Below the pieces are notes generated by a model. The model searched no databases. It was not told where the DNA came from and saw nothing but the letters and a program-made list of their open reading frames with translations. Positions 734 through 22,876 of a stretch of DNA of 23,286 nucleotides are shown here, one piece after another. Numbering within the stretch: the stretch's first letter is position 1; the number at the start of each line of letters is the position of its first letter. The position numbers and the translations under genes were made by a program. The DNA comes from an uncultured archaeon (GTDB lineage Archaea > Asgardarchaeota > Lokiarchaeia > Sigyniarchaeales > SOKP01). The DNA lies in assembly GCA_964388035.1 (NCBI GenBank), contig CAYLZE010000081.1:1-23286 (forward strand), read 5' to 3'.

Positions 734-1087
734 TTAAGAAAGGACTTGAATTAATTTCTCAACAGAATAATATCGGGTAAAGTATCCCTCCTTTTTTCCC
801 ATAATCAAACCTGCTTCTTCTAAAATTTTAAGGTGGTGTGTTACGGTTCCTTCTGATATTTGAAATACTTTAGCAAGAGCACAAGTACACATTGGCTTAT
901 CTTGAAGCAGTTTATACATGAGATATCTTTTCATCTTGGAAAGGGCCTTATGGATTTTGTACTCTTTTTTAGTTAATGTGTCATTCATCACATTTGCTAT
1001 AAAGTCTTCATGTTTATTTAAGAATTCAGTGCAAGATGTCCCGGGTTCTAATTCTTGAATGTACTTTTTAAATCTTTCTTCTGACAT
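734..1087 (-). CDS. arsR: ArsR/SmtB family transcriptional regulator
   Basis: KALS...R..YKLL; alpha3 CxC motif MCTCAL; HTH ISEGTVTHHLKILEEAGLI; wing GKKEGYFTRYY; extra N-terminal Cys. Confidence 0.85.
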   Translation of the reverse strand: MSEERFKKYIQELEPGTSCTEFLNKHEDFIANVMNDTLTKKEYKIHKALSKMKRYLMYKLLQDKPMCTCALAKVFQISEGTVTHHLKILEEAGLIMGKKEGYFTRYYSVEKLIQVLS

Positions 1088-1278
1088 TAAAGTATAGAAA
1101 TTATTTTTATTTTAATATTTTTTGGTTTGTTTTGAGAAAGTTTAAAATGGATTATTTTCTTATGATCTCAAGGTACTAATAAACTCATTTTAAAAATACA
1201 TAAAGCAGAAATAGGTGAGAAAAACTGGATTCTGAGCAATTCGAATTATCAAAATCATTCAATTATTATGACGATTTT

Positions 1279-1899
1279 ATGGGAAAGGTGCTAGAATTTG
1301 ACAATTTGACTATGGATGATTATATGGAAATCATGCCAAAAATATTACCTCTCGTACTTCACCAAACTACAAAGGTGCCCGTGGTTTTATTTGAATCGGT
1401 CATCTCTCAACTCAGAGAGATATGGACAGCCTCAGAGGAATTACCATTTCATGGCCCCTGGCATCATGGGATTGTACCAGCTGTTCTCATACAAGCGCTA
1501 AAAAACAATGATTATGACTTTATTGAAAAAGATGTGAAAGAAGCTTTTATGCGTGGCTTGAAAATACCTGCAGGAGGCTGTGGATTCTGCGGTACTTGTG
1601 GAGGTGGAAGTGGCGTAGGGATTGTGGCAAGCATTGTTCAAAAAGCCACGCCATTTCATGATAAAGAACGTTCTGAAGGATTTGAAGCCGCTTTAAGTGC
1701 TCAAAAGCAGATAGGGAAATTAGGTGGCCCTAGATGTTGCCGCCTCAGTGCTTATGTAGCAATTGATCAAGGAATTAAATATTTAGCGAAAAAGAACTAT
1801 TCCCTGCCTGAACAAAAAATGATTGGGCGATGTAATGTTTACGAGTTAAACGCTCAATGTCACGGAAAGCGCTGCCCTTACTTTCCTAAAAGTAAATGA
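1279..1899 (+). CDS. DUF5714 family Cys-rich protein (possible upstream CTG start at 1225)
   Basis: HGPWHHGIVPAVL, PAGGCGFCGTCGG, GGPRCCR, C-terminal C..N.QC.GKRCPYF pattern. Confidence 0.8.
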   Translation: MGKVLEFDNLTMDDYMEIMPKILPLVLHQTTKVPVVLFESVISQLREIWTASEELPFHGPWHHGIVPAVLIQALKNNDYDFIEKDVKEAFMRGLKIPAGGCGFCGTCGGGSGVGIVASIVQKATPFHDKERSEGFEAALSAQKQIGKLGGPRCCRLSAYVAIDQGIKYLAKKNYSLPEQKMIGRCNVYELNAQCHGKRCPYFPKSK

Positions 1900-2069
1900 A
1901 CTTCAACTCGAATTAATTCATTTTTTTTAATCATCTTTTATTTTTCATCCAATCTCAAAATAGACAAATAATAGATTGATGTCTCATTGTATAATACAAA
2001 TAGTTTTATAAAGTTATACTTAAAAATAATATAACAATTAATATTAAAACTAAAGAAGAGCTGATCATC

Positions 2070-2531
2070 ATGAAAAAGATAAAGATAACGATTTTCGCAC
2101 CCGATCCCGAGAATAACCTTTCAAATGGAATAACATATGTACCAGAAATAGATGATAATGGGTCAATAATCGATGCATTGAGTTCAATAGACAAAAAAAT
2201 TTTTAACCAACCGGAAAGATCTTTTTTTCCACTATACAAGGGATTAATTTACAGTTTCCTTCAATTAATTTGGGATGCCGAGGAGGATAATATTTATGAA
2301 GACTGCGGTGTGAATGCATATGGACCCAATAGGGAATATATGCCACTAAGAAGCGATATCAACTTTAATTTACTTCCTAACTCTGAAATTACAATTATCG
2401 TTCACGCTGATTGATGAGCAGATAATATGAAAGAGCGATTAGATTATGGTGCGTTTAAGAGAGTTATTAGAGATAAATTCGGAAAAGATAATGATAAATT
2501 TTTGCATTATTTCGCGCTAAAAAGGAATTAA
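2070..2531 (+). CDS. Beta-grasp (MoaD/ThiS/SAMP-like) protein, candidate selenoprotein with tandem UGA-UGA at 2412-2417 (153 aa if read through; 114 aa, 2070..2414, if not)
   Basis: Strand-strand-helix start (KKIKITIF / TYVPEI / SIIDALSSIDKK) and MoaD-like end (NFNLLPNSEITIIVHAD); in-frame TGA TGA, then 37 sense codons to TAA 2529-2531; SECIS-like hairpin immediately after. The 2070..2414 portion is a confident CDS; the extension is inferred. Confidence 0.6.
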
Positions 2532-2538
2532 TTATAAA

Positions 2539-2582
2539 ATGGAATGATATCATTCAAAAAATAATAGTGAAGGATGGACCAT
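2539..2582 (+). promoter_or_regulatory. Putative eukaryote/Loki-type SECIS element (kink-turn hairpin)
   Basis: AUGG(2539-42)/CCAU(2579-82) lower stem; AAU bulge; tandem GA(2546-47)/GA(2577-78) within AUGA...GA core; U.G pair; upper stem AUCAUUCA(2549-56)/UGAAGGAU(2568-75) with 7 of 8 pairs; A-rich apical loop AAAAAUAAUAG. Confidence 0.55.
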
Positions 2583-2834
2583 GGGATTGCATCTCATATT
2601 TAGGATTATGCTAAAATAATTTTTTGTAAATTTGAGATATAAATCCACATAGAATTATCTGGAAAAGGTATCATAAATTCAAACAATTTTTCATGAGTCA
2701 TTGTTAAAGTATTTTCGCTTCAAGATCTTCTAATCAAGTACGAAATTTTTACCTATAATCAGTGATAATTTTATAATCTAAACCTATTTAGAATAGACCT
2801 AATATTATTGAAATTAGCATACCTTTATTCCATT

Positions 2835-3602
2835 CTATGGTATTTTATTTCCCCATTTAGAGCTTGAATACTTTTCTCTCACTAATTTCCTTGCTCGATT
2901 CAGCTCTTCGTTTGTTAAGTCAATACGAGTTAATTCTAGGTGGAATGCTTTCTCAACTTGACTAATAATATCTTGAATGATCCTCTCAATTGTTATATAT
3001 CTGTTGAATGAGCGTATATTTGTTGTTTTTGTTCTATTACTAGGAACGTAGTGTCCTACTTCGGTATCAAGAGTCGTGTCGAGAACTTTTGTTAGAAGGT
3101 CAAGATCCGAATTTATTAATAAAGTACCATGATGCAAAACCGAATTTCCCCTAAAAAGTTGGGCACTCCCTGAAATTTTCTTGTTGTTGAGATAAATTGA
3201 ATTAGGAACGTGAAAAGAGCAATCTAAATGGGATTTCATTAACGCGTCAATAATTATAGTTATAAGGAATTTGTTTAGAATGGATACATTGTTTGAATAA
3301 TATTCACAGTGATTATTCATAAAGAATGAAAAGTTCAAGCACCCTAAATCTAAATATACCCCACCTCCCCCCGTAATTCTTCTTAATATGGGAACTTGAT
3401 GTTTCTTGCATGCGCGTATATTAACCTCCGCCTTTAAAGATTGATTTCTCCCTATAATTACGGAAGGTTTTGATCTCCAAAACCTTAAGATTAAATCGTG
3501 TTCTCTATTCTTCACTGATTGTAATAAAACCTCCTCAACAGCTTGGTTCAAAAAGGGATTCGATATACTTGGTAATATTACGCAGGCAACTTCTTGGTTC
3601 AT
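2835..3602 (-). CDS. lplA: Lipoate-protein ligase family protein (catalytic domain only; LplA-N/LipM-like)
   Basis: NQAVEE.LL, LRFW..KPSVIIGRNQ, RRITGGGGVYLD.G.LNFS, KKISGSAQ, HHGTLL. Confidence 0.9.
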   Translation of the reverse strand: MNQEVACVILPSISNPFLNQAVEEVLLQSVKNREHDLILRFWRSKPSVIIGRNQSLKAEVNIRACKKHQVPILRRITGGGGVYLDLGCLNFSFFMNNHCEYYSNNVSILNKFLITIIIDALMKSHLDCSFHVPNSIYLNNKKISGSAQLFRGNSVLHHGTLLINSDLDLLTKVLDTTLDTEVGHYVPSNRTKTTNIRSFNRYITIERIIQDIISQVEKAFHLELTRIDLTNEELNRARKLVREKYSSSKWGNKIP

Positions 3603-3815
3603 TTTTTTAATACAAATAGGATTTTTTATTATTTAGCAAAAATAATTATTAGAAAAATATTATTTTCTCCCACTATCATTTTTTTTAATGAGTTAAGTTA
3701 TTTTTTTAAAAAAGGAATTTTTTACTTTGTAATTTATATTAAAAAGGTTTATAGAATTAGATAATAACGCATTTAAAAATATTTTGGAGTGAAATTGTAA
3801 TACTGAACCTGAGTA

Positions 3816-4895
3816 TTACCCGGGAGGTTGTTTACTATCCAATGATACAAGGTAATATTTCTTTTTAAAATATTTTGCTACATTTACTAAAGAGATCATT
3901 ACAGGAACTTCAATTAATGGGCCTATTACTGCAGCAAATGCAACTCCCGAACCTAACCCAAAAATCGATATAGCAATAGCAAGTGAGAGTTCAAAATTAT
4001 TACTTGCTGCTGTAAAGGAAAGACTCGTTGATCTCTGATAATCAGCCCCCAATTTTTTACTCATGACAAAACTAATTAGAAACATCAATATAAAATAGAA
4101 AAGCAGTGGAATTGCTATTATGACCACATCCAATGGAATTGATACCACTTGACCGCCTTTTAAGCCAAACATTATTATAATTGTGAATAAAAGAGCAATT
4201 AGTGTAATTGGAGAGATTTTAGGAATAAATTTTTCGGCATACCATTCAGACCCTTTTATCTTGATCAAAATCGTTCTGGTAACAAATCCAGATATGAAGG
4301 GAATTCCCAGATAGATAAATACACTTTCTGCTATGGAACCTATTCCAATATTTATTATATTGGATTGTAGTCCGAGCAAACTGGGCAATAAAGTAATATA
4401 AAACCAAGCAAATACACTATAAAAAAGAACTTGAAATATGCTGTTAAATGCCACTAAACCTGCCGCATATTCGCGACTCCCTCCCGCTAATTCATTCCAA
4501 ACAATAACCATGGCAATACATCGAGCCAGACCAATTAAAATGACACCAATCATATATTCGGGATAATTTCTCAGAAAGATAAGAGCAAGTACAAACATTA
4601 AAAATGGTCCAATTAACCAATTTTGAATTAGCGCCAATCCTAATATTTTTTTATCCTTGAAGACATCCCCCAACTCCTCATAATGTACCTTGGCAAGTGG
4701 AGGATACATCATTAAAATTAATCCGATTGCGATTGGAATATTAGTATATCCCACTTCAAAGTTTGAAAGAAATACTTCAAAACCTGGAAAGATAAATGCG
4801 ATTAAAATACCCACTATCATTGCTATGAATATCCAGAGGGTAAGGAATTTATCCAGATTTGAAAGCTTTTTGACGGGAATTCCAATTTTTTGCAT
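3816..4895 (-). CDS. acr3: Acr3 family arsenite efflux transporter
   Basis: [42 protein letters not shown] (conserved Cys), [15 protein letters not shown]; about 10 hydrophobic segments. Confidence 0.95.
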
Positions 4896-5230
4896 TGTTC
4901 ATGGTTTTAAAACTAACAAGAAAATATAATTATTTTGATTAAAAAATAAAAGAACGCATATGAAATGCTCTTTCTTTTTGTTTTACCAAGAAAGATGGTT
5001 ATTATTTATAAATACTTTAATTTTTTGCCTTTATCTAAGAAGGTAAAATTTTAAAGAAGAAAAAATAGAGTGGATTATTCCTATAAATGCTTATATTCGA
5101 AAAAACTCAAGTGAGAATTTTTAATTTTTATAATACTTTAATTCGTTCTAATATTATTTCACGAATTTACTAAAAGAGTACTTGTAGATTATCCTTTCAT
5201 TTAATTGTAGGAAAAAGAATAATAAAAATT

Positions 5231-5722
5231 TTAATAAGTGCTAATTTGTTGACTTTCTAACTCATCTAAATTAAGCCCTTTTTTCTGCAACTCTGTATAG
5301 ATGTAATGTATTACTTTTTTAATATCCTCTTCTTTAATCTCACTTAATTTATTCTTATTTTTAAAGGAGTTGAGATCATTTAGGTTAAGACGTTGTTTAG
5401 GAATGATATCTTGGACGGAGATTACTAAATCTGGTTTAATTTCCAAATGTTCATAGATTTGACTGGCACAAGCCGTATTACAGCCATTAATTACTATCAA
5501 GAAGGAATTTTTTAAGTGTTTTTTAGTAAGCTCAACCATGTTATCTTTACCTAATAACACATTCTTTAAAAAAATAGTTGAGCATGTCATTGAAGCTAAG
5601 ATTGATATTTTACTGTTTTCTATTAATTGAATTGCTACTTTTCGTGCGAGTTCTCCGTGATACTCCGCCCCGGAACAGGGGATTAATATGATATTATTAA
5701 ATTTCTCTTCGATTTCGTTCAA
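5231..5722 (-). CDS. DGC-domain putative zinc/metal-binding protein
   Basis: IPCSG...GELAR.VA, central Cys (SMTC), IVINGCNTACA; TTG start 1 nt after upstream stop. Confidence 0.8.
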   Translation of the reverse strand: MNEIEEKFNNIILIPCSGAEYHGELARKVAIQLIENSKISILASMTCSTIFLKNVLLGKDNMVELTKKHLKNSFLIVINGCNTACASQIYEHLEIKPDLVISVQDIIPKQRLNLNDLNSFKNKNKLSEIKEEDIKKVIHYIYTELQKKGLNLDELESQQISTY

Positions 5723-5723
5723 C

Positions 5724-6014
5724 TCATATCAAACCCTTTTCCTTTAGAATTACAGGTAATTTCTTCTTTAATGCAAAAGAACTGGTAACCACATCTTTTC
5801 CGTCGATAACTACACTATTTCCATGAAGGTTTAAATTGCGTGCCTCCTCGGAGTCAAGATTCTTGGTTTCAAATTTTATATATTTATTGTATTCTGTTAA
5901 TACCTGAAACACCAAATTCATGAAATTTTCCCATTGGCAAGCACATACATTCAAAGGAATATACACATCAACCTGTAATTTATTTTCTTCCAACTTTTGT
6001 TCGGCTTTTGACAT
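5724..6014 (-). CDS. Small CxC protein, possibly thioredoxin-fold/ArsD-like metallochaperone
   Basis: VDVYIPLNVCAC then helix; SVVIDGK strand resembles the Trx-fold P.vvidG region; SD AGAGGTG upstream; co-oriented between arsR and DGC gene. Coding is confident, function is tentative. Confidence 0.55.
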   Translation of the reverse strand: MSKAEQKLEENKLQVDVYIPLNVCACQWENFMNLVFQVLTEYNKYIKFETKNLDSEEARNLNLHGNSVVIDGKDVVTSSFALKKKLPVILKEKGLI

Positions 6015-6029
6015 TTGATTTTACACCTC

Positions 6030-6350
6030 TTATATATTTTCTTGAATCTCCAATATTTTTTCATATTTTTGTTCTCGCTTAATAATATTATCAAGTACCG
6101 CTAATAGTTTAAAAATGCGAGAATCTTTTATTTTGTACATGACTTTAACACCATCTTTTCTACTTTCAATTATATCAGCGAGTTCCAATTTCTTTAAATG
6201 TCTTGAAATCATGGATTGAGATTTTTCCAACATTTTCTCGAAATCGCAGCCACAGAGCTCTCCTCCATGACGTAGGAGACCTATAATCTCAAGTCTTGTT
6301 TCATCTGATAAAGCTTTAAGCTTTTCCAATCTCAATTTTTCTAATTTCAT
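6030..6350 (-). CDS. arsR: ArsR family As(III)-responsive repressor
   Basis: LKALSDETRLEII, ELCGCDF (cf. ELCVCDL alpha3 site), SQSMISRHLKKL, RKDGVKVMY. Confidence 0.92.
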   Translation of the reverse strand: MKLEKLRLEKLKALSDETRLEIIGLLRHGGELCGCDFEKMLEKSQSMISRHLKKLELADIIESRKDGVKVMYKIKDSRIFKLLAVLDNIIKREQKYEKILEIQENI

Positions 6351-6360
6351 ATTTTTCTCT

Positions 6361-6382
6361 TTTATGCATTTTCATACATAAA
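6361..6382. promoter_or_regulatory. Putative ArsR operator 1 (imperfect palindrome)
   Basis: TTTATGCAT-TTTC-ATACATAAA, 10 nt upstream of the arsR start. Confidence 0.55.
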
Positions 6383-6454
6383 TTCATATAAATAATATAT
6401 TACATCCTATTTAAGTATTAACCTAACTTAAATTAATAAAAAATGGTTTTTGCT

Positions 6455-6476
6455 TTTATGAGCAGAAATGCATAGA
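6455..6476. promoter_or_regulatory. Putative ArsR operator 2 (inverted copy of operator 1)
   Basis: TTTATGAGCAGAAATGCATAGA; its reverse complement TCTATGCATTTCTGCTCATAAA matches operator 1 at 16/22 positions with both arms retained. Confidence 0.5.
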
Positions 6477-6571
6477 TTTATACACGATGATATATTATAA
6501 ATATTTGTTAAAGTTTAGTTAAAAAATGAATTATTGAAAACTCAAATAAAAATAAACTCTGGCGTATCATT

Positions 6572-6961
6572 TTGAGTAAAGAAAAAAAAAAAATTGGATT
6601 TATCATGTGCGTTTGTACGGGAAAATGTCCGGGCTTTGCAAAAATGGATGTTTGGGATTTTATTAACCGTATTCGAATAGAATTACCCGTTGAATATGGA
6701 TTTATCCATCCACAATTATGTGAAGAAGATGGGGATCGTTTCTTGGATGACTTTTTACGACCTGGTCGCAAATATCTAATTGGTGCATGTGCCCCCAACA
6801 TGCAATATAAAATGTTTCGCGATGCATTTAATAAGGTAGGACTTGATATAAAAAAAGATCTTATCCCATTAGATATTAGAGAAATGACAACCGATGAAGC
6901 CGTGGAATTGGTAGAAAAAACATTAGAAAAAATGGAAGAGGAGGATAAAAAAAATGAGTAA
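6572..6961 (+). CDS. Stand-alone heterodisulfide reductase subunit A N-terminal-domain-like protein
   Basis: KIGFIMCVC, HPQLCEEDG, IGACAP...KMFR....GL, LDIRE parallel HdrA RIGVYVCHC / MCSDPG / ACSP..H..TF / NIRE; TTG start; no FAD domain. Confidence 0.75.
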   Translation: MSKEKKKIGFIMCVCTGKCPGFAKMDVWDFINRIRIELPVEYGFIHPQLCEEDGDRFLDDFLRPGRKYLIGACAPNMQYKMFRDAFNKVGLDIKKDLIPLDIREMTTDEAVELVEKTLEKMEEEDKKNE

Positions 6962-7250
6962 AAGTTATGATTCAAATAAAGAAACCTTCATGGGCGTCCC
7001 GCGAAATAAAATCCCCTGGTGGCCAACTATAGATTATGAAAAATGTAATTTTTGTATGGAATGCGATAAATTTTGCCCCCATGATGTCTATGAAAAAACC
7101 GAAGGGGAACATAAGAATTTAATTGTGAAAAATCCTTATAACTGCGTGGTTTTTTGCCGTGCGTGTGCTAAAGCTTGTGCTCTTGACGCATTATCTTTTC
7201 CTGATAAACGAGAAATCACAAAAATGATAAAAGAATTAAGAGCTGAATAA
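6954..7250 (+). CDS. 2x[4Fe-4S] ferredoxin-type protein
   Basis: CNFCMECDKFCP and CVVFCRACAKAC motifs; PRNKIPWWPTID leader; overlaps upstream stop. Confidence 0.9.
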   Translation: MSKSYDSNKETFMGVPRNKIPWWPTIDYEKCNFCMECDKFCPHDVYEKTEGEHKNLIVKNPYNCVVFCRACAKACALDALSFPDKREITKMIKELRAE

Positions 7251-7264
7251 GAAGGCGATTAAAA

Positions 7265-8152
7265 TTGAACGATGAGAATATTTGTATCCTTCCCTGCAAT
7301 GGATTAGATAAATCTTTAGGGGTTATTGCTCGCGAAGTTGCTTTAAGAATCATGGAGAAATTTCCCAATATCAAATTAATTTGTCCGGTATTATTGAATT
7401 CTGGGGATAAAACCTATGAGGAACTCTTAAGGAATTTGAAAATCATAGTAATTAATGGTTGCATGACAAGGTGTCCTACAAAATTGATAGAAGAACGCAG
7501 TGTTAAACCTTTCAAGCAAATAATGATTCCCGAAATGTCCAAGAAATATAAAATTAAACCATCCAAGAGTTTAAGATTGGATGAAGAGAATATTAAGCTC
7601 GTGAACCAAATTGCTGACGAGATCATTAAAGATTTAGAAGATACCGGACAAGAAGAAGAAAAGCATGTGCGAGAATTCGGAGAACAGGGTTATTTTGATA
7701 TTACGGTTGATAAATATTATTTTACCGTTCCTAAAGAGGGATATTTTTTTAATGAAAATGACTGTTGGATAAAGCCTATTGGAAAAACGGCTTTATTAGG
7801 TATTTCCGATTATCTGCAAAATGCTGCCAGCGATGTCTTATTTGTCGATTTACCTGAAGTTGGAAATATGGTGGAGCAATTTGATGATGTGGGCTCTTTC
7901 GAATCCACAAAAACCGTATTGCAATTAATTTCACCAGGTTCTGGAAAAATAATCGCTGTAAATAAGACTCTAGAGCAGCATCCAGAATATTTAAATCAAG
8001 ATCCTTACAATAAAGGATGGTTTGTTGAAATTGAACTGGAAAATTTTGAAGAAGATCATGAACTTTTAATGAATTGTCCACAATATTTTGAATATATGAA
8101 AAATAAGGCAATTAAAGAAAAAGACCATTTAGATAAAATGAAAGGTGAATGA
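7265..8152 (+). CDS. DGC domain fused to glycine cleavage H-protein (lipoyl carrier) domain
   Basis: N-half LPCNG, LICP, IVINGCMTRCP; C-half LGISDYLQ, DVLFVDLPEVG, ESTKT (lipoyl Lys216, codon 7910-7912), SPGSGKIIAVN, NQDPY..GW. Confidence 0.9.
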   Translation: MNDENICILPCNGLDKSLGVIAREVALRIMEKFPNIKLICPVLLNSGDKTYEELLRNLKIIVINGCMTRCPTKLIEERSVKPFKQIMIPEMSKKYKIKPSKSLRLDEENIKLVNQIADEIIKDLEDTGQEEEKHVREFGEQGYFDITVDKYYFTVPKEGYFFNENDCWIKPIGKTALLGISDYLQNAASDVLFVDLPEVGNMVEQFDDVGSFESTKTVLQLISPGSGKIIAVNKTLEQHPEYLNQDPYNKGWFVEIELENFEEDHELLMNCPQYFEYMKNKAIKEKDHLDKMKGE

Positions 8153-8153
8153 A

Positions 8154-8576
8154 ATGGCTGAAAAAAAAGTATATATTATTCCGTGTAGCGGAATTGGAAA
8201 AGTTTTTGGAAGTATAGGCAGGGAAACTACATACATTACAGTAAATGAATTAGCAAAGGGAAAAGCAGAATTGGAATGTTTACCTTTAATAGTAAAGGGA
8301 AAAAAGAAAGTCATTGAGGATTTAAAAGCGAATAAGATAATTGTAATCGATGGATGTCCATTAAAATGCTCTTATAACAATGTTATGGAACAAGTGGGAA
8401 AAGTGGATGCTCAATTCATGACTACTAACATCGTCAAGGAAAATCGAGAATTAAAACCCGAATCTTGCATAATTCCGATCGGTGAAAATACTAAAACTTT
8501 ATCCCAAAAACTAGCTGAAAATGTATCAAAAAAAGTAGATGAATTACTCGAAAATGGAGAGGAGGTGAAGGATTAA
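8154..8576 (+). CDS. DGC-domain putative zinc/metal-binding protein
   Basis: IIPCSGIGK, ECLP, IVIDGCPLKCS; ATG 8154 preferred over GTG 8145 because SD GGTGA lies at 8144-8148. Confidence 0.85.
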   Translation: MAEKKVYIIPCSGIGKVFGSIGRETTYITVNELAKGKAELECLPLIVKGKKKVIEDLKANKIIVIDGCPLKCSYNNVMEQVGKVDAQFMTTNIVKENRELKPESCIIPIGENTKTLSQKLAENVSKKVDELLENGEEVKD

Positions 8577-8996
8577 ATGAGGAAGAAGATAGGAATTATC
8601 GCATGTAGTGGAGAAAAGTTAATTGGGGGAACTCTGAGCCGTGCTGCTGCTAGAATTGTAGTAGAAAGATTGAGACCGAATAGCACGATTGTTTTATGTC
8701 AACCATTATTTGCTGCCGGGGGTTTAGAACGTCATGGAGGACAAGAAGAACGAAATTTTGCTAAAGAACATCCCACGATAACTATTGAAGGGTGTGAAGA
8801 AGAATGTTCGAAAATTGCGGTTGAAAGATATAGTGGACCTGTAGCGGCGACAATTAGGATTGATGACATCTTAAAAGCACATCCGGAATTGAATCCAAAT
8901 TCTCGGGAAGATTTAGGAGAAGAAGGGATGAAATTAGCACAGATAATTGCGGAAGAGGTTGCTAAAAAGGTTGATGAGTTATTTATAGCTGACTAA
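8577..8996 (+). CDS. DGC-domain putative zinc/metal-binding protein
   Basis: IIACSGE, VLCQP, ITIEGCEEECS; SD GGAGGTGA upstream; abuts previous stop. Confidence 0.85.
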   Translation: MRKKIGIIACSGEKLIGGTLSRAAARIVVERLRPNSTIVLCQPLFAAGGLERHGGQEERNFAKEHPTITIEGCEEECSKIAVERYSGPVAATIRIDDILKAHPELNPNSREDLGEEGMKLAQIIAEEVAKKVDELFIAD

Positions 8997-10667: not shown

Positions 10668-12110
10668 TCATTTTGTTATATTTATGGATTCACTCGCAAT
10701 TCTTGACAATTCTCTTTTCAATCCCTCATTTATGGGTTTAATTTCCGGTTTAGCATTTAAATTTTTTAATTCTTCGTTTATTCTCTTCCTCGTAGAAAGA
10801 GCTCCTGAGTTTAACCAAGAACTATAAGACATTCTATTGATAATGGAACTGGTAAAATAAAGCTCTTTCTTATAAAGGTTTAGAGTGGAGGGATGAGATA
10901 ATAAGTTCCCTTTTTTTCGAAAGTCTTCGATTATATCCGAAGCAAAAGGAAGGTCGTGATCGGGAATACCTGCAATTAATTTTTTAACCATTCCGGCGAT
11001 TTCGTTATCTATCATTAATTTACTAATACTCTGGGTGGATTCAGATTCTAACATTCCGGGACCAGAAATGACATTGATTCCGGCCAGTGCTCCTAAAATC
11101 AATCCAATTCCAGCTTCAAAAGCCATCTGTAAATCAAGCATTTTCGAATCACTCACGCACATGTAAGCATGGGTAGGAATTTTTAGATATTTCCCCATTT
11201 CTATATTTCCAATATTCATCATCATTGCTTCTATTGAGCCCATTGGGGAGGTGCCTTGCCTCATATCGAGCACGGCAGGAGAGCCGCCCCAAATTAAGGG
11301 GGCACCTTTATTAGTTAATTGCGAAATTACTACTCCTGCTAGATTTTCTGCACACATTTGAGTTATCGATCCGATTAGAGTAATGGGACCATTAGCTCCA
11401 GCTATAGGCATTGAAACGAATTCTATTGGGATCTTGCTTCTTGCTCCATCTATAATGGCTTGGGTGGTTAAATCCGTCCATATTAAGGGAGGAGATGGAG
11501 CTGCGTCAAAAATCGCAAGTGGTTTATTTGCCAAATCCTTTTCAGATAGTCGACAAGTTAATAGCAATTCTTTCATGATTTGAAAACTGTCTTTATTAAA
11601 GGTACCAGTTATAATCGGTTTATAACAATAATTCAAGCAAATAAATAATCGATACCAATCTTGTGAAATTATAGGTACATCTTGGCACACCATTGCCGTG
11701 CTTTGCGCGTCAATATATTTAAGCTTTTCTACCACTTGAGTAAACTTTATGAAATCCTCTGTCTTTGCATGTCTTCTTTCTCCCGTGTTTTCGTCGATCA
11801 CGTTCATTGCTGTCGATCCCGGGTTAAACAATACGTTATCATTTTCTAAGAGAAAATGCTCGTTTCCCTCTCGATCATATAATTTAATTTGATTGGGAAC
11901 CGATTTGACACATTTTTCAGCGAGATCTGGAGGAATAAAAAATAAAGATTCTACGTGATTTAATCCTTCTTCTTTTAAAATTTCGGCGGCTACTTTATTT
12001 TGAACTTGTACTCCTTGGCGTGAAAGAATTTGTTTTGCTTCCAGTAATACTTTATCTTTATGATCATCATCTAAAATAGTAATTTTCGGTCTAATCATGT
12101 TCAATATCAT
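10668..12110 (-). CDS. Trimethylamine methyltransferase (MttB/COG5598) family, non-pyrrolysine
   Basis: SPPL, GANGPITLIG, AENLAG, DMRQG, SDSK..D.Q..FE, AGINVISGPGMLES, IDNEI; uninterrupted ORF with Val before SDSK, where Pyl is recalled to sit in methanogen MttB. Confidence 0.9.
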   Translation of the reverse strand: MILNMIRPKITILDDDHKDKVLLEAKQILSRQGVQVQNKVAAEILKEEGLNHVESLFFIPPDLAEKCVKSVPNQIKLYDREGNEHFLLENDNVLFNPGSTAMNVIDENTGERRHAKTEDFIKFTQVVEKLKYIDAQSTAMVCQDVPIISQDWYRLFICLNYCYKPIITGTFNKDSFQIMKELLLTCRLSEKDLANKPLAIFDAAPSPPLIWTDLTTQAIIDGARSKIPIEFVSMPIAGANGPITLIGSITQMCAENLAGVVISQLTNKGAPLIWGGSPAVLDMRQGTSPMGSIEAMMMNIGNIEMGKYLKIPTHAYMCVSDSKMLDLQMAFEAGIGLILGALAGINVISGPGMLESESTQSISKLMIDNEIAGMVKKLIAGIPDHDLPFASDIIEDFRKKGNLLSHPSTLNLYKKELYFTSSIINRMSYSSWLNSGALSTRKRINEELKNLNAKPEIKPINEGLKRELSRIASESINITK

Positions 12111-16388: not shown

Positions 16389-17602
16389 TCCAATTCATAA
16401 TTTACGGGAATCTTAATTCTATTCCCCGATTCTGCAGATAAATAGGCAGAATACATGACTTTAGTCGTCCAAATGGCAAGATCCAAATTGGATTGAGGTT
16501 CTTTATCTTCTTGTATACATTTCATAAAATCTTGCATTTCAAAAGGATAACCTGTCATCCAATCCTCATCGGGTTGAGCAAAATTCCACCCGGCTTTTGT
16601 TTCAGTTTTTTCAATTGTATAGGCATTCTTAAATTGATTTTCAGTTGGAGCATAAGCCATGAGAGAATTATTATTAGAAATCTTGCATTCTATGCGGGTG
16701 GTACTTGCATAAATATTCATCCAATTTTCGATACCGCCTAATGTCACGTCAGAACCAAATACTACCGTATTAGTCCCGTCCTCAAAAGTGATTATTCCAC
16801 ACGACCAATCTTCCACATCTTTAGGTCGGGAACGAATATAATCCTGATCAGATGGAAGAATAGTTAGTAATTCCCTACATTTCGCAGTAATCGCGACTAC
16901 AGAGCCCGGGTAAATGGGTTTATTGTCTCTAATTAAGCCTTCCCACATTTTCAAATGGAGAGCGGCCCCATAAGGATGAGCTCCCATTCTCAACAAGGAA
17001 CCTCCTCCCGTGTATTTCCATTCCGAAGCGAATCTTGAATGAGATCCCGAATGGCTTTCTCCGCATCTGATCTCCAAGATTTTTCCTTTGGATTCTTTTA
17101 AAAGATTTTTTGCTTTAGTTATGGGAGGGGCATAGACCCAATTTTCGGCATAACAGAAACGGGTTCCCGATTTTTGGAACGCTTTATCAATTTTCTCGCA
17201 GTCTTCTAAGGTTTTTTTCAACATGAACATCTTGTCCGTAAAACCCACGTTCTCTCTTTCTTCAATTGTGATTTCCGGATTTCCAAAATAACCGGTAAGA
17301 GGTTTTTCACATATCACGTGCTTACCCTGTTCTGCTGCCAGGATGGCAAAAGGGACGTGAAGATAAGTAGGTACGACCAAGTCAATGACCTCAGCTTTTA
17401 ACTCACGAATAAGTTTTTCAGCGTTTTCATATATAATATCAATATCTAATTCATGATCTCTACAGAAGATTTCCGATCTTTCCCAATGTTGGGAAGTTAA
17501 TCCCGCAATTTCAACTTTTATCCCCGGGATTTTATGATAAGCTTCCAAATGAAGATTTGCAGCAAATCCTACTCCTATCAATCCAATTTTAATTTCATCC
17601 AA
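16385..17602 (-). CDS. Gfo/Idh/MocA family NAD(P)-dependent oxidoreductase
   Basis: IGLIGVGFAA..H, VPTYLH, GKHVICEKPL, YAEN, GGGSLLRMGAHP, VEDW; TTG start. Confidence 0.93.
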   Translation of the reverse strand: MDEIKIGLIGVGFAANLHLEAYHKIPGIKVEIAGLTSQHWERSEIFCRDHELDIDIIYENAEKLIRELKAEVIDLVVPTYLHVPFAILAAEQGKHVICEKPLTGYFGNPEITIEERENVGFTDKMFMLKKTLEDCEKIDKAFQKSGTRFCYAENWVYAPPITKAKNLLKESKGKILEIRCGESHSGSHSRFASEWKYTGGGSLLRMGAHPYGAALHLKMWEGLIRDNKPIYPGSVVAITAKCRELLTILPSDQDYIRSRPKDVEDWSCGIITFEDGTNTVVFGSDVTLGGIENWMNIYASTTRIECKISNNNSLMAYAPTENQFKNAYTIEKTETKAGWNFAQPDEDWMTGYPFEMQDFMKCIQEDKEPQSNLDLAIWTTKVMYSAYLSAESGNRIKIPVNYELE

Positions 17603-17632
17603 CTATTTTCACCAAATATGAATAAATAAAAT

Positions 17633-18493
17633 TCACTCTAACTCCTTTAACCAAATCGAGAGAGTCTCTAAACTTTTTTTGGAGATTACTTCTTTATTTC
17701 TCAGTGCGTGGGTTTCTAATATGAAATTGCCCTCAAAATTATTTCTAAAAGCTTGTTCAAGAAGAGGTTTATAATTTATTTTTCCTTCCCCAACAGTTGT
17801 AAAAATTGCTCCTAATATAGGAATCCTTCTCTTAGGGTCCTTAACATGCATGTGAGCAACCAGGTTCTGTTCGTAGAAATAATCATACGCTTCGGGTAAT
17901 GTGGATTCTTTATCCATAAAAAAATTGCCGGGATCGAGGAGCAGTTTAATTGAAGTAGAATTAATTTCTTTAAAAAATTTTTTAGTTTCCTCGATCTTAC
18001 TGACAATGAGACCGTGATCATTCTCCAATAATAATATCTTTTTCCTTTCTTGTGCTTTCTGAATGCATGGACGTAAAATTTCAATCATTTCATTCCATTG
18101 ATGCTGGGTTGTTTTCAGACTTAACTTGAAAAATGAAAAAATGCGAATATAAGGTGTATTAAAAAAATCTGAGATTTCGATAATTCTATCAAACAAGGAT
18201 AAATTAAATTCCGGGTTTCTGGAAAGACTCTTTTTTTTTGAGGTTGCAAGATGAGAGCTCGGTAAAACACATTTAGCAAATGGGCTTGTTATTACTATAA
18301 CCTTAATTTGGTACTTCTCCAATAGTCCTTTTAATTGTTTTAATTCTTCATCCGTAAATAAAGCGATATTCTTATTCCAAATAGTTCGGAGATCCACTTG
18401 TTTAATTCCAAACTCTGAAGTGGTCTTAAGGGCATTCTCAAAATCCTGACTTATTTCATCAGTTATTACAGATAGGTGGTTTAATTTACTCAT
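17633..18493 (-). CDS. Sugar phosphate isomerase/epimerase (AP endonuclease 2 / xylose isomerase-like TIM barrel)
   Basis: ITDEISQD, IRIFSF, LLLEN, LLDPGN, HMHVKD, VGEGKINY, ILETH metal-ligand pattern. Confidence 0.88.
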   Translation of the reverse strand: MSKLNHLSVITDEISQDFENALKTTSEFGIKQVDLRTIWNKNIALFTDEELKQLKGLLEKYQIKVIVITSPFAKCVLPSSHLATSKKKSLSRNPEFNLSLFDRIIEISDFFNTPYIRIFSFFKLSLKTTQHQWNEMIEILRPCIQKAQERKKILLLENDHGLIVSKIEETKKFFKEINSTSIKLLLDPGNFFMDKESTLPEAYDYFYEQNLVAHMHVKDPKRRIPILGAIFTTVGEGKINYKPLLEQAFRNNFEGNFILETHALRNKEVISKKSLETLSIWLKELE

Positions 18494-18509
18494 TTTTTTC
18501 TCTCCTAAC

Positions 18510-19316
18510 TTAAGGTTCTTTAAGCAATTCTTCTAAGATTTTCCCATCTTCCATGCAATGCTCGAATTTACCAAAACCAACTGCAAGATAGTCATTCTTT
18601 TTGATATTTTGAAGACAATATTGTAATCCCTCTCTTGGTTGAATCCTTCCTGCGCCCATGGGTTTTATGTTAATAATCTGCTGGGGTGTTTCTTGGATCA
18701 CTTTAATTAAATCCCCGGGATTAGCATTTGATTGAAATCCTATTTTATTAAGGGGTTGCGTGATTAGAGGGGCATCATAGTTGTTTTTTTGCACAGCTTT
18801 TATCGTTTCGATATAATGTGTTGACAATCCCGGTATCATGCCCTTATCTCTGATGTATGAGCTCAGTTCTGGATAAGGAGGTAATCCTTTTTTATTTTTT
18901 CCAATTGTCAAGGAATTTTTATCTATAGCATGATCAGTATAATTCCTATGCAACAAGCAAACCGATACTTCATTTTGATAACACCAATCTATTTGTTCAT
19001 ACATATTAGTTGACAGGTTTTTGGCTGTTTTTCTACGAGAAGGAGTGCATAACCAATGGAATTTTTCTCCAATTTCTTTTTGAGTTATTTTAATAGCTTC
19101 AAGAATTTTATCCCGAGGAGAAGATATACAACAATTTATCTCATGTTGTTGGTTTAAATAAATCAGAAACTTTGCAATAGTTTTAGGTTCTTTAAATCTT
19201 CTTAGATGTAAATATATATCTATGGGATTCCATCTATGTGTAATTCCAACGAATTGATTTGTTCCACATACAATTTTTGATAACTTGAGATTTTCAAGCG
19301 AAATTTTGGGTATCAT
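18510..19316 (-). CDS. Aldo/keto reductase-like TIM-barrel protein
   Basis: LSKIVCGTNQF.G, GMIPGLSTH, PLNKIGF, NIKPMGAGR. Confidence 0.6.
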   Translation of the reverse strand: MIPKISLENLKLSKIVCGTNQFVGITHRWNPIDIYLHLRRFKEPKTIAKFLIYLNQQHEINCCISSPRDKILEAIKITQKEIGEKFHWLCTPSRRKTAKNLSTNMYEQIDWCYQNEVSVCLLHRNYTDHAIDKNSLTIGKNKKGLPPYPELSSYIRDKGMIPGLSTHYIETIKAVQKNNYDAPLITQPLNKIGFQSNANPGDLIKVIQETPQQIINIKPMGAGRIQPREGLQYCLQNIKKNDYLAVGFGKFEHCMEDGKILEELLKEP

Positions 19317-19610
19317 TTTACTTTAACTTATTTTTAATTTAAAATTAGTATTAATGCAATTAAAGTTTTAAAATTATTAGTTGATGGTATAATTAATAAG
19401 GTTACATTTTTCATTCTGGTAGATAATAAACTCAATTCAAATAAATGGATGATTAAATAAAAAAGCAAGCCGTTACAAAATATGGGCGTTAAAGGAGTTA
19501 TTATTCATTCCTCCCATCCTCTAAGCATGAAAAAGAATCATATTTTAGAACATGTTTCTTTATTTTAAAATGAAAATTATTATAAGGAATCGCTTAAAAT
19601 ATAAATATTA

Positions 19611-20723
19611 ATGTTAGAAAAAATAGATATTCCTAAATTATTAGATAGATATAACGTTCCAGGAGTTTCAATCTCATTAATTGAAAACTATAAGGTTCTA
19701 AAAATAGCGAATTATGGTTTTGCAAGTATTGAAGATAAACAACCAGTAACTAAAAATACTGTTTTTCAGATAGCATCCATTTCGAAACCTATTTCGACCT
19801 GGGGCGTAATGAAATTAGTGGAAAAAGATTTGATTGATCTTGATGCGCCCATAGAGAATTATCTGAAAAAGTGGCATCTCCCTCCTTCCAAGTTCAATCA
19901 TGATAAAATCACGATGAGAAGATTGCTAAGTCATACTGCAGGACTTTCTTTACATGGATATTCGGGTTTTCATCCTGATCATGAAAAACCTTCTATTGTG
20001 GATTCCCTTTCTGGAAATATCAAGTACCAGAAGGATGCAATTCAATTAAAAATAAAAGAAATAATTAAATCAGATCCAAAAGAAGATGAAAGACCAGTCA
20101 CCGTTTTTGTGGAACCAGGAACACAATTTTCATATTCAGGAGGAGGATATACAATAGCACAACTCATTGTTGAAGAAATAACGGATCAAAATTTTGCGGA
20201 ATACATGGAAAATGAAATATTAAAACCCTTAGGCATGAATCAAAGTAGCTTCTCGTGGCGTGAAGATTTAAAACCATTAACGGCAAAAGCTTATTTCTTT
20301 TACAGTGAGATTGTACCAAATTATCTTTTTACCGCTTTAGCGGCAGCAGGTTGTTATTCTACTACTGTTGATTTGTCAAAATTTGTCTTAGCTAGCATGA
20401 AAGGTTCTAATGGGGAATTGCCCGGTAGGGGTATCCTAAAGCCTGAAACCATTGAAATGATGCATAAAATATATTTTGAAACAAAAGATCCTTTATCCAT
20501 TAATTCCCATATGGGATTAGGATACTTTATCATGCCATTAAATGGGTATAAGATTGTTAACCATAGCGGAGGAAATATTGGATGGAATACACAAATGATG
20601 TTCATTCCCGAATCTGGAGATGGATTGATTGTTTTCACCAACGGTCAAAATGGTATTAAATTAACTCTAACCTTAACCGCTAAATGGCTAAAACATGTTG
20701 AAAAAAAACTACTTTCAAAATAA
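19611..20723 (+). CDS. Serine hydrolase, beta-lactamase class C-like family
   Basis: VPGVSISL, FQIASISK (SxxK), LLSHTAG, FSYSGGGY, PLGM, HSGGN.G; no signal peptide seen. Confidence 0.92.
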   Translation: MLEKIDIPKLLDRYNVPGVSISLIENYKVLKIANYGFASIEDKQPVTKNTVFQIASISKPISTWGVMKLVEKDLIDLDAPIENYLKKWHLPPSKFNHDKITMRRLLSHTAGLSLHGYSGFHPDHEKPSIVDSLSGNIKYQKDAIQLKIKEIIKSDPKEDERPVTVFVEPGTQFSYSGGGYTIAQLIVEEITDQNFAEYMENEILKPLGMNQSSFSWREDLKPLTAKAYFFYSEIVPNYLFTALAAAGCYSTTVDLSKFVLASMKGSNGELPGRGILKPETIEMMHKIYFETKDPLSINSHMGLGYFIMPLNGYKIVNHSGGNIGWNTQMMFIPESGDGLIVFTNGQNGIKLTLTLTAKWLKHVEKKLLSK

Positions 20724-20828: not shown

Positions 20829-22133
20829 TTATTTGAAAGGATCTTTATCTTGAAATATTTTTTCTTTATAGCTAGCTAAAGGGGGAGGACATAAACCGTA
20901 TTCAGTGGCGATGTGCTTTAATTGTTTCATCATTTCTCCTAAATTTATTTCAACAGGACACCAATTTGCGCAGTTTTCACAGCTCGTGCATAAAAATAAT
21001 CCGTCCTTTACTGCCTCTTCAATACCATTATGAATATAATCTCTTATGATGTTTATTGCCCCAATTCCATATTTTGAGGCATAAATATTTCCAAACGCGC
21101 GAGATGCAGTACACACGAAATCACACGATTTACAGGAAATACATTTAAGGATGTCCTTATAGAATTTATTTTCTTTGACTGCTTTGATTCTCCAATCATC
21201 CACCAAAATGACTACGACTTCTTTTGCACCATACATTCCCATAACGCGTTTTCCTTTGATATCAGATGTATTCGATGGAGCTGAAATAAGACTTATGTAG
21301 GCTCCATCAACATTAGTGATCCGTTCTTGAATTTTTGCAACCATCAAGGCATCGAACACGTCGGGGACAATTTTACCAATCCCTGCTACTACTATATGTT
21401 TTTCTGTAGCTCTAGTTAATATACTAATGTTTCCTTCATTTTCAACCAATACAATAGAGCCATCATGGGCTGCAATAGCATTAGCTGAAGTCAGAGAAAC
21501 TTTAACTTTGTTTAATAGCTCTGGTCTATAGGTTTCTCGAAAATATTGAACGATAGCTTCCGCCTTTGGTTCGATTTCCACGCCATATTTTTCTTTGATC
21601 TTTGCAACAATTTCTTCTTCTGTGAACTGTATTCCAGGACCTAGTGTAAAGCTCGGATGTTCATAACCAAGTAATTGGCACATGACATCTCCTAAATCCG
21701 TTTCTTTAATTTCGATATTATTCTTCTTTAAAATATCTATAATCCCCGTATCCTTAGCTTCTAAGGATTTAGATTTATATATGACCTTTTGATCTCCTAA
21801 CTCTTTCATGAATATTTCCTGTGCTTCTTGATTTGTCTTGGCTAAATATACTCGGAACTTGTTCGTTTTTTCCATTACATTAAGGCATTTATTGACATAA
21901 GCTTCAATATTCTCAATAAAATCGTTTCGCATGGCAATTAATTGGGGTTTATATTTATTAACAAATTCTCTGCTAGTATCATCGTAAAGGTATCTTAAGT
22001 CAAACGAGCGATATTTTCCCAAACATGCTAGCTTCCAGAGTTCTCCGAATTTACTATACGCTGAATTCTCATCTTTAAGCATTTCTATCTTGGACTTCAC
22101 ATCTTCATATAACTTTTTTCCTTGTTCACTCAT
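20829..22133 (-). CDS. lutB: LUD-domain Fe-S protein (LutB/LldF-like lactate utilization protein)
   Basis: KSKS, ETDLGD, SANAIAA.DGSIVLVENEGN, HIVVAGI.KIVP, TSDI, G.YGAKEV.VILVD; CISCKSC...C and CTSCENC...CP clusters. Confidence 0.85.
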   Translation of the reverse strand: MSEQGKKLYEDVKSKIEMLKDENSAYSKFGELWKLACLGKYRSFDLRYLYDDTSREFVNKYKPQLIAMRNDFIENIEAYVNKCLNVMEKTNKFRVYLAKTNQEAQEIFMKELGDQKVIYKSKSLEAKDTGIIDILKKNNIEIKETDLGDVMCQLLGYEHPSFTLGPGIQFTEEEIVAKIKEKYGVEIEPKAEAIVQYFRETYRPELLNKVKVSLTSANAIAAHDGSIVLVENEGNISILTRATEKHIVVAGIGKIVPDVFDALMVAKIQERITNVDGAYISLISAPSNTSDIKGKRVMGMYGAKEVVVILVDDWRIKAVKENKFYKDILKCISCKSCDFVCTASRAFGNIYASKYGIGAINIIRDYIHNGIEEAVKDGLFLCTSCENCANWCPVEINLGEMMKQLKHIATEYGLCPPPLASYKEKIFQDKDPFK

Positions 22134-22876
22134 TTTAACGGGTCGCCTCCTTCCATTAATTTTACAATAAAATCTTCAAATTTAATGATAGGTTTTTTGA
22201 TATTATTTTCATCGTGTATCCGCTTTAATGCGGTATAACAGAAAGGACAGGCCGTCAACAATGCTTTACCTTTTCGCATCTGATCGAATATGGTCTTCCC
22301 ATTATAGTCACTATTCTCTTTAAAAATAGAATAAACTCCGCCTCCCGCTCCGCAACATATAGAATTTAACCCACTGTTTTCCATCTCAAAAATCTCAACA
22401 TTTTCTATGGAATTGATGATTTTTCTTGGCTCCTCAATTAGTGGAGGATTGGCATTCTTTAAGTGGCAAGCGTCATGATAATTCACGTATAGTTTGCTTT
22501 TATCATATTTTAAGTTTAACTTTTTCAAATTTTCATCTTCAGCCATTAGTTGTAAGAGATGTTTCACTTTCACATTGAATTCTCCGTTTAAAAACTCCTT
22601 ATAACCTGTTAAATACCTATAACAACCCGCACAGATGGTTACTAACTCATTCACGTGATGATCTTTGAACCATTGATTAACCTCTTCCACGTGTTTTTTA
22701 AGCTCTGCTTGGCTGGCAACATGAAAAGATAATGATCCACAACAAGGGGTATCATCAATAACTTCATACTCTGAATCAAGTTGGTTTATTATTTTTAATG
22801 CATTTTCACATGTCTCTTTATATCTATTCCGGGAGAGGCACCCTAAAAATATTAATTTTGTCATTTCGTAACTCAT
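22130..22876 (-). CDS. CCG-domain Fe-S protein (LutA/GlcF/HdrB-D-like)
   Basis: FLGC, CCGS, CAGC, YHDACHL, CCGAGGG, TACPFC; ATGA stop/start overlap with lutB-like gene. Confidence 0.88.
   Translation of the reverse strand: MSYEMTKLIFLGCLSRNRYKETCENALKIINQLDSEYEVIDDTPCCGSLSFHVASQAELKKHVEEVNQWFKDHHVNELVTICAGCYRYLTGYKEFLNGEFNVKVKHLLQLMAEDENLKKLNLKYDKSKLYVNYHDACHLKNANPPLIEEPRKIINSIENVEIFEMENSGLNSICCGAGGGVYSIFKENSDYNGKTIFDQMRKGKALLTACPFCYTALKRIHDENNIKKPIIKFEDFIVKLMEGGDPLK

Follow-up and report, generated by a model that had tools for sequence, protein, structure and literature searches.

Gene content of the locus

The DNA considered here is a stretch of 23,286 nt (hereafter the window), contig C81 of a 5.47-Mb metagenome-assembled genome (MAG; 96.7% complete, 7.3% contamination) of an uncultured Asgard archaeon. 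Its subject is a locus that encodes an ArsR repressor, an ACR3-family arsenite transporter, a lipoate-protein ligase and a cassette of five genes, the latter specifying two iron–sulfur (Fe–S) proteins, a fusion of a DGC domain (PF08859) with a GcvH-like lipoyl domain, and two free DGC proteins. The nearest loci to that of the window are carried by Promethearchaeota (Asgard) contigs and their proteins share 60–79% identity with those of the window. Every gene named in a preliminary description of this sequence is present where it had been placed. The main features of the locus are the following:

2835–3602, minus strand: lipoate-protein ligase of 255 aa, catalytic (large) domain only (PF21948, 157.5 bits; TIGR00545, 191.6 bits)
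3603–3815, minus strand: spacer between acr3 and the ligase gene, likely a separate ligase promoter (oligo-T runs, ATGCGT box, TATAAAC box)
3816–4895, minus strand: ACR3-family arsenite efflux transporter of 359 aa (TIGR00832, 437.4 bits for a cut-off of 282.8; PF01758)
4896–5230, minus strand: 335-nt region upstream of acr3, with a possible ArsR operator, GCATTTCATATGCG, at 4955–4968 (suggestive only)
5231–5722, minus strand: DGC-domain protein of 163 aa, invariant Cys 16, 47, 81 and 85 (PF08859, 53.6 bits)
5724–6014, minus strand: protein of 96 aa with an invariant C24-x-C26 and no family match (9–10 orthologues)
6030–6350, minus strand: ArsR repressor of 106 aa, whose only two Cys (C33 and C35) lie in ELCGCDF (PF01022, 48.4 bits)
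6351–6571, between the two arms: divergent promoter region with two ATGCAT boxes (6364 and 6468) and a TATA-like sequence, TTTATACA (alignment of eight regions)
6572–6961, plus strand: free-standing Fe–S protein of 129 aa that resembles the N-terminal domain of HdrA, invariant Cys 13, 15, 19, 50 and 73 (profile search)
6954–7250, plus strand: 2x[4Fe-4S] ferredoxin of 98 aa with two four-Cys motifs (Fer4 family matches; eight conserved Cys)
7265–8152, plus strand: DGC domain (residues 1 to about 130), helix and GcvH-like lipoyl domain (about 150–295) with Lys216 (PF08859, 61 bits; PF01597, 106 bits)
8145–8576, plus strand: DGC protein of 143 aa, invariant Cys 14, 45, 71 and 75 (PF08859, 53 bits)
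8577–8996, plus strand: DGC protein of 139 aa, invariant Cys 10, 41, 73 and 77 (PF08859, 43 bits)

These genes form two arms. On the minus strand, the order of transcription is arsR, the gene of the Cys-x-Cys (CxC) protein, the DGC gene, acr3 (after 335 nt) and the ligase gene (after 213 nt). The last two are co-directional, as had been described, but the ligase gene does not directly succeed acr3, since the 213-nt gap contains oligo-T runs and a TATA-like box. The other arm, divergent from arsR, is the five-gene cassette, which is tightly packed, with 8-nt overlaps at 6954 and 8145 and a zero gap at 8577. A 155-aa open reading frame (ORF) on the minus strand at 6508–6975, without family match, was discarded as an antisense shadow of the gene of the 129-aa protein. 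No gene for GcvP, GcvT, Lpd or the E2 subunit of a 2-oxoacid dehydrogenase was found within the window, in agreement with the preliminary description.

Conservation of the cassette and of its arsenic neighbourhood

A scan of species-representative genomes provided 51 cassette loci, distributed among Asgard archaea and at least six bacterial phyla (including Bacillota, Actinomycetota, Bacteroidota, Desulfobacterota and Armatimonadota), in which the order of the core genes is constant wherever the flanks are long enough. The gene of the 129-aa protein and that of the ferredoxin precede the fusion gene in all 43 loci having at least 800 nt of upstream flank, and two DGC genes follow it in all 49 loci having at least 1 kb of downstream flank. 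Because this sample is biased by one of the patterns used in the search, three more distant fusions retrieved by an unbiased profile search were also looked up: all of them lie in the same gene order and one is accompanied by ArsR. In one of these distant loci (L066), the cassette is preceded by a gene for an ArsM-like SAM methyltransferase (655–1524) and followed by three Thioredoxin_3 genes in tandem (4633–5418).

Genes recurring around the cassette were counted, in numbers of loci, from ORF clustering and from motif and Pfam scans of the flanks. Those of arsenic type encode ArsR (31), Acr3 (16) and ArsA (10), and those related to thiols or redox reactions encode thioredoxin (13), Thioredoxin_3 (10), DsbD_2/CcdA-like proteins (14) and an Lpd-like flavoprotein (12). 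Cysteine desulfurase (14), a PF04060 Fe–S protein (13), DUF166 (11) and rhodanese (8) recur as well; an ArsC of the low-molecular-weight (LMW) phosphatase type was detected by motif search of the flanks in just 3 of the 51 loci. Of the 34 loci flanked by 3 kb or more on each side, 21 contain ArsR, 11 Acr3 and 6 a lipoate ligase. According to our own rough estimate, chance would place acr3, at one or two copies per genome, within 6 kb of the cassette in well under 1% of loci. The linkage between ars genes, lipoate ligase and DGC–gcvH is thus conserved: the core is invariant and ArsR, Acr3, ArsA and ligases recur next to it across phyla, far above chance.

The DUF166 gene lies after the last DGC gene in 11 related Asgard loci (L005–L012, L014, L015 and L017). 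It is missing from the window, where a histidyl-tRNA synthetase gene converges on the cassette.

A GcvH-like carrier distinct from the glycine cleavage system

The lipoyl domain of the fusion has the fold of an H-protein and retains its attachment site. In an AlphaFold2 model of the fusion (predicted local distance difference test score, pLDDT, of 90), the H domain superposes on the H-proteins 3klr, 1onl and 1htp with TM scores (TMt) of 0.92–0.93. Lys216, the lysine of FESTKT, is aligned with the residue that carries the lipoyl group in H-proteins of known structure and is kept in 26 of 27 representative fusions. Besides fold and lysine, the fusion shares with the H-protein of glycine cleavage the flanking E-S-x-K motif. 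It differs by its DGC domain and by scores lying below the curated GcvH cut-offs (106.5 versus 115.85 bits for TIGR00527 and 108.4 versus 117 bits for NF002270). It also differs in the cavity of the lipoyl arm, where H-proteins carry HEW and the fused domain has FFNENDCW (D166-C167-W168); N-D-x-W occupies the canonical H-E-W position in 26–27 of the 27 representative fusions. In the H-protein of Escherichia coli, the aminomethyl-lipoyl arm is housed in a cavity whose lining includes Glu12 and Glu14 (bioRxiv 10.1101/2021.03.28.437365).

The genome holds the glycine cleavage genes elsewhere: gcvT and a canonical gcvH lie side by side on contig C40, GcvP is encoded by C87 and Lpd by C110. The E2 subunit of 2-oxoacid dehydrogenases was not found in the genome. 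Its two GcvH proteins other than the fusion carry HEW and HQW, respectively. The HQW protein is encoded by a third, stand-alone gcvH (contig C6, 27323–27736) that has an insertion before the lipoyl lysine and adjoins NAD kinase-like and MptE-like genes. Among the genomes bearing the cassette, 6 of 16 lack GcvP. These genomes include isolates: Acetobacterium bakii and A. paludosum lack GcvP and have no GCV_H-domain protein other than the fusion, and GcvT is also absent from A. bakii. The separate gcvH next to gcvT, the loss of HEW and the carriers devoid of GcvP place the fused H domain outside canonical glycine cleavage. An ordinary housekeeping role, i.e., an H domain working in glycine cleavage, a ligase serving all lipoyl proteins and ars genes adjacent by chance, would accord with the H-protein fold (TM 0.9), the lipoyl lysine and the presence of GcvP, GcvT and Lpd in the genome, but is hardly credible given these same data, a five-gene order kept across domains of life and the separate housekeeping ligase, belonging to another clade, that is described below.

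Two cysteines of the lipoyl part of the fusion are not universal. Cys271 is present in 38% of the 51 loci. Cys167, at the position of Glu14 in the arm cavity, was considered as a universal third sulfur that, together with the lipoyl dithiol, would form an As(III)S3 site; it was rejected as a general feature since no more than 7 of the 27 full-length representatives from the unbiased search contain it. That all 51 loci have this cysteine is partly an effect of ascertainment because FFNENDCW served as a search pattern. This residue may still matter in the subfamily to which the fusion of the window belongs.

A second lipoate ligase, and the status of acr3

The ligase of the locus matches PF21948 over positions 1–198 of 200 and TIGR00545 over positions 6–238 of 328. 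It contains the motif KKISGSAQ, the lysine of which is presumably catalytic, as in LplA of E. coli. The genome, in spite of its completeness of 96.7%, yielded no match to PF10437, the C-terminal accessory domain that, unless a separate LplB takes its place, is required to form lipoyl-AMP; both LplA-type ligases of the genome are devoid of this domain. The sequence of the 255-aa protein would therefore suit either a ligase acting with an unrecognized partner or a transferase. The two LplA-type genes encode proteins that are only 31% identical. The other one, the housekeeping ligase, is located on contig C64 between two radical-SAM genes, followed by a thioesterase gene and F420 biosynthesis genes; this trio (16982–19815) looks like a LipS1–Lpl–LipS2 route of lipoate assembly, and canonical LipA was not found in the genome. 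A branch with 100/99 support divides a tree of 24 ligases, taken from 12 genomes that carry the cassette: the 10 cassette-adjacent ligases are all found to one side of it and the housekeeping ligases to the other, although the cassette-adjacent ones do not make up one single clade. Identity and tree thus agree with the earlier proposal that the locus has a lipoylation enzyme of its own, from a lineage apart from the housekeeping one.

In the closest relative of the locus (L004, whose fusion is 77% identical), the ligase gene directly follows the DGC gene, without acr3 between them. Therefore, the ligase is to be assigned to the arsR arm and not to acr3, and the acr3 gene of the window is probably a local insertion. 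The Acr3 protein of the window shares 62–67% identity with the Acr3 proteins of bacterial cassette loci and 30–31% identity with cassette-adjacent Acr3 of other Asgard MAGs and with the second copy of its own genome. This second copy lies in another ars-like locus (contig C9, 100656–105939), which includes an ArsR-like gene and the gene of this Acr3-like protein (271 bits, slightly short of the TIGR00832 cut-off); next come paralogues of both the 96-aa CxC protein (53%) and the 114-aa protein encoded at 2070–2414 of the window (39%). These two small proteins are therefore linked to arsenic genes twice in the same genome.

Iron–sulfur and DGC proteins

The 129-aa protein that opens the cassette has no match in Pfam or NCBIfam. 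A profile built from 28 of its orthologues matches residues ~3–93, in the N-terminal domain, of four HdrA structures, namely 7bkb (E = 4e-4), 9sfi (1e-3), 5odc (0.018) and 8rvu, with E values ranging from 4e-4 to 0.25, and C13, C15, C50 and C73 align with cysteines of HdrA. In HdrA, the [4Fe-4S] cluster of the N-terminal domain is completed by Cys197 of a partner subunit (PMC9012536). The 129-aa protein is free-standing instead of being part of a flavoprotein and has a fifth invariant cysteine, Cys19, within CVCTGKC, which may replace this ligand provided in trans. The family comprises 1216 clusters at E ≤ 1e-10, which are mostly unnamed or labelled HdrA-like. Its members share 65–91% identity across archaea and bacteria, which, if the proposed role of the cassette is confirmed, would point to exchange between Asgard archaea and bacteria. 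A predicted complex of the DGC–GcvH fusion with the 129-aa protein obtained a score of 0.00, which is evidence neither way.

All four DGC copies of the genome are located in the window and score 43–61 bits (PF08859 gathering cut-off, 27). The free DGC proteins keep four cysteines throughout; in the fused domain, C11, C66 and C70 are universal and the fourth cysteine is lost in about half of the representatives. In 10 loci, the 163-aa DGC protein of the left arm is conserved along with ArsR and the protein with CxC. The AlphaFold2 model of the 139-aa DGC protein (pLDDT 93.5) displays a flavodoxin-like three-layer fold, with cysteines after strands 1, 2 and 3. Foldseek returned nothing at E ≤ 0.001 with this model and VIA-align returned only generic flavodoxin- or Rossmann-like matches, the best of which (Z = 8.9) is the uncharacterized protein 3pu6. 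Kinship between DGC proteins and ArsC is not claimed, as the matches to ArsC and LMW phosphatases (E about 0.04) are no better than those to lumazine synthase or CheY.

Regulators, small proteins and other genes of the window

The ELCGCDF motif of ArsR aligns with the ELCVCD metal site of CadC (1u2w) and of Lmo1102, and all of 18 orthologues keep its CxC. CadC-type sensors have in addition a pair of cysteines near the N terminus; the ArsR of the window lacks this pair, so that its cysteine pattern appears to be of the As(III)/Sb(III) type, a specificity deduced from the sequence. Eight Asgard intergenic regions between arsR and the cassette share, when aligned, a block of ATGCAT, ATGCGT or ATACAT boxes beside a TATA-like box. 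The arsR/cassette, acr3 and ligase promoters, 769 nt in all, contain four ATGCRT-type boxes (0.28 expected), and the 2054 nt of other intergenic DNA of the window contain one. The box of the ligase promoter is the ATGCGT at 3767–3772, which reads ACGCAT on the plus strand. These boxes hint at a single regulon. A 27-nt operator consensus drawn from related Asgard loci has no match in the window within three mismatches, and an ATGAAA(A)TGC motif was set aside because it was derived from the same sequences, which makes the argument circular.

The 96-aa CxC protein, for which Pfam and NCBIfam gave no match, was compared with Thioredoxin_3/ArsE proteins; this relationship was rejected, as profile–profile comparison gave a probability of 2% and a profile search of the PDB returned nothing meaningful.

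A neighbouring divergon lies at lower coordinates than the ligase gene and contains the following genes:

734–1087, minus strand: second ArsR-family regulator of 117 aa with the CxC site PMCTCAL (Pfam HTH_5, 4.8e1 bits)
1279–1899, plus strand: Cys-rich DUF5714 protein (GGCGFCGTCGGG, RCCR) divergent from the second ArsR (PF18978, 143 bits)
2070–2414, plus strand: 114-aa protein without family match, whose tblastn matches adjoin Acr3 in 6–7 related loci

The second ArsR heads this divergon of the arsenic island, and its orthologues pair with Acr3 in related Asgard loci, unlike in the window. On the other side of the cassette, the window encodes an MttB-family methyltransferase (10668–12110) that is without in-frame stop and is therefore a non-pyrrolysine member of its family. 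Further away, at 20829–22876, lie genes for a LUD-domain Fe–S protein and a CCG-domain protein, which are LutB/LutA-like lactate utilization genes unrelated to the cassette, even though the CCG domain is of Hdr type.

Proposed function and alternatives

These data very probably reflect an arsenic-linked lipoyl/Fe–S/DGC module that is separate from the glycine cleavage system. On balance, we favour reading positions 734–8996 as an arsenic island organized around ArsR repressors of CxC type, in which the module works as follows. As(III) or Sb(III) would release ArsR. Low-potential electrons would then flow from the ferredoxin to the cluster of the HdrA-N-like protein and from there to the lipoyl disulfide of the fusion. 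The resulting dihydrolipoyl arm would service the sites of three or four cysteines of the fused and free DGC modules. The relay would thus be a turnover thiol reductase, whose substrate may be a pentavalent arsenical or disulfides induced by arsenic; alternatively, it may maintain As(III)-binding thiols in a state fit for efflux. The regulator and a private ligase for Lys216 would come from the left arm (arsR, CxC protein, DGC protein and ligase). A turnover relay is favoured over a passive As(III) carrier because two electron-transfer proteins are obligatory in the cassette and because Lpd follows it in Acetobacterium; this particular step of the interpretation is plausible, if slightly short of probable.

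Several facts weigh against this interpretation as a whole. The 51-locus sample is biased, FFNENDCW having been among the search patterns, and about one-third of the well-flanked loci have no ArsR within 6 kb. The ArsR of the window has just two cysteines and, by sequence, its best solved relatives are Cd/Pb sensors. The DGC family is without characterized member and the model matches only generic flavodoxin-like folds. Three LMW-phosphatase/ArsC-like genes lie elsewhere in the genome, and arsenate reductase is therefore not obviously missing. Lastly, the MAG has a contamination of about 7%.

As(III) binds tightly to vicinal dithiols such as dihydrolipoamide. On this established chemistry rested the proposal of the preliminary description, that a lipoylated carrier traps As(III) or shuttles it to Acr3, or else takes the place of poisoned lipoyl proteins. 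In the form of this model weighed here, the dihydrolipoyl arm and the DGC cysteines would bind As(III) directly, as a trap or a swinging-arm chaperone delivering it to Acr3 or ArsA, and the Fe–S proteins would only keep the arm reduced. Acr3 or ArsA does lie within 6 kb in many loci, and the three universal cysteines of the fused DGC domain are a better fit to an As(III) site of three sulfurs than to a Zn or Fe–S site of Cys4 type; the additional Cys167 of the subfamily of the window, at the Glu14 position of the arm cavity, points in the same direction. However, a passive carrier is never oxidized and would need neither two electron-transfer proteins per locus nor the Lpd of Acetobacterium, Cys167 is present in only 7 of the 27 unbiased representatives, and Acr3 is absent from two-thirds of the well-flanked loci and looks inserted in the window. 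We consider this model unlikely, while still granting it some weight. Nearly the same holds for a bolder version, also rather improbable, in which the lipoyl arm is a metalloid-handling swinging arm: it would take up As(III) or Sb(III) and hand it first to the three cysteines of the fused DGC domain, then to the free DGC proteins and finally to the pump, the Fe–S pair resetting the arm.

Somewhat less likely still is a general module of thiol, sulfur or soft-metal stress (persulfide, Cd/Zn/Sb, disulfide) placed under ArsR-family sensors, of which the arsenic genes would be mere neighbours. Regulators of the ArsR/SmtB family respond to many metals and to persulfides, and the best solved relatives of the window ArsR are of the CadC type. 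Yet this ArsR does not have the two N-terminal cysteines found in CadC, and it retains the CxC seen in As(III) sensors. Genes for rhodanese, cysteine desulfurase, CcdA/DsbD, peroxiredoxin-like and CDF proteins recur in the flanks, but the recurring transporters are the arsenic-specific Acr3 and ArsA. The GcvH-like LbpA does take part, alongside Hdr-like proteins, in the oxidation of sulfur (bioRxiv 10.64898/2026.10.01.755906), whereas none of the genes for HdrB/C, DsrE and TusA was seen in the flanks of the cassette.

Relationships with known systems

Among the closest known systems is sHdr-LbpA, which associates an Hdr-like complex, GcvH-like lipoate-binding proteins and a dedicated sLpl(AB)-LipS1/S2 lipoylation pathway (bioRxiv 10.64898/2026.10.01.755906). 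Both systems have a GcvH-like carrier that is outside glycine cleavage, Fe–S proteins related to Hdr and their own non-housekeeping ligase. They differ in that the cassette encodes only the N-terminal Fe–S domain of HdrA (~125 aa), without flavin domain, and in that none of the HdrB/C CCG subunits, DsrE and TusA was seen in the cassette or its recurring flanks. The CCG protein of the window (22130–22876) pairs with the LUD protein, 13 kb away, and no CCG or FAD protein is found among the cassette genes or their recurring neighbours. Furthermore, the carrier of the cassette is fused to DGC, the regulator is an ArsR, the neighbours are arsenic genes, and the radical-SAM (LipS-like) genes flank the other ligase of the genome.

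The canonical ars operons of anaerobes comprise arsR, acr3, arsD/arsA and arsC along with genes for thioredoxin, Thioredoxin_3 (ArsE) and CcdA. The locus shares with them a CxC-type ArsR, ACR3 efflux and small accessory thiol proteins; its lipoyl carrier, its lipoate ligase and its two Fe–S proteins have no equivalent in any ars operon that we found described. A DGC gene has nevertheless been reported in such a context: an ArsR5-ArsP-ArsE-DGC operon of Pseudodesulfovibrio mercurii ND132 ends with a PF08859 protein without assigned function (bioRxiv 10.1101/2022.10.17.512643). Our literature searches on the DGC domain, GcvH and lipoate ligase found no description of the cassette, in agreement with the earlier statement that no characterized ars operon of this design is known.

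A third comparison is offered by the Lpd–DlaT–AhpD–AhpC relay of Mycobacterium tuberculosis, said to have been described by Bryk and colleagues in 2002, in which a dihydrolipoyl group reportedly acts as reductant of a Cys-based acceptor in stress defence. The cassette would resemble it by its protein-bound dihydrolipoyl reductant and by the Lpd gene that follows it in 12 bacterial loci. It would differ from it by an Fe–S pair as electron input, by DGC proteins as acceptors in place of AhpD/AhpC and by a metalloid sensor as trigger.

Significance

Lipoic acid is a textbook target of arsenite poisoning. If the proposed arsenic-linked module is confirmed, anaerobes would have turned this very target into a tool of defence. 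It would provide a first function for the DGC domain and for the free HdrA N-terminal module, and would add a further role of protein-bound lipoate to acyl or aminomethyl transfer and sHdr sulfur oxidation. If the metalloid swinging arm were correct instead, it would represent a new biological role of lipoate and a new class of metallochaperones. The presence of the cassette in culturable Acetobacterium species (A. bakii, A. paludosum and A. carbinolicum), and likewise in Acididesulfobacillus acetoxydans, makes it amenable to direct testing. The module, if confirmed, would be an overlooked step in the arsenic cycling of anoxic sediments, soils and guts.

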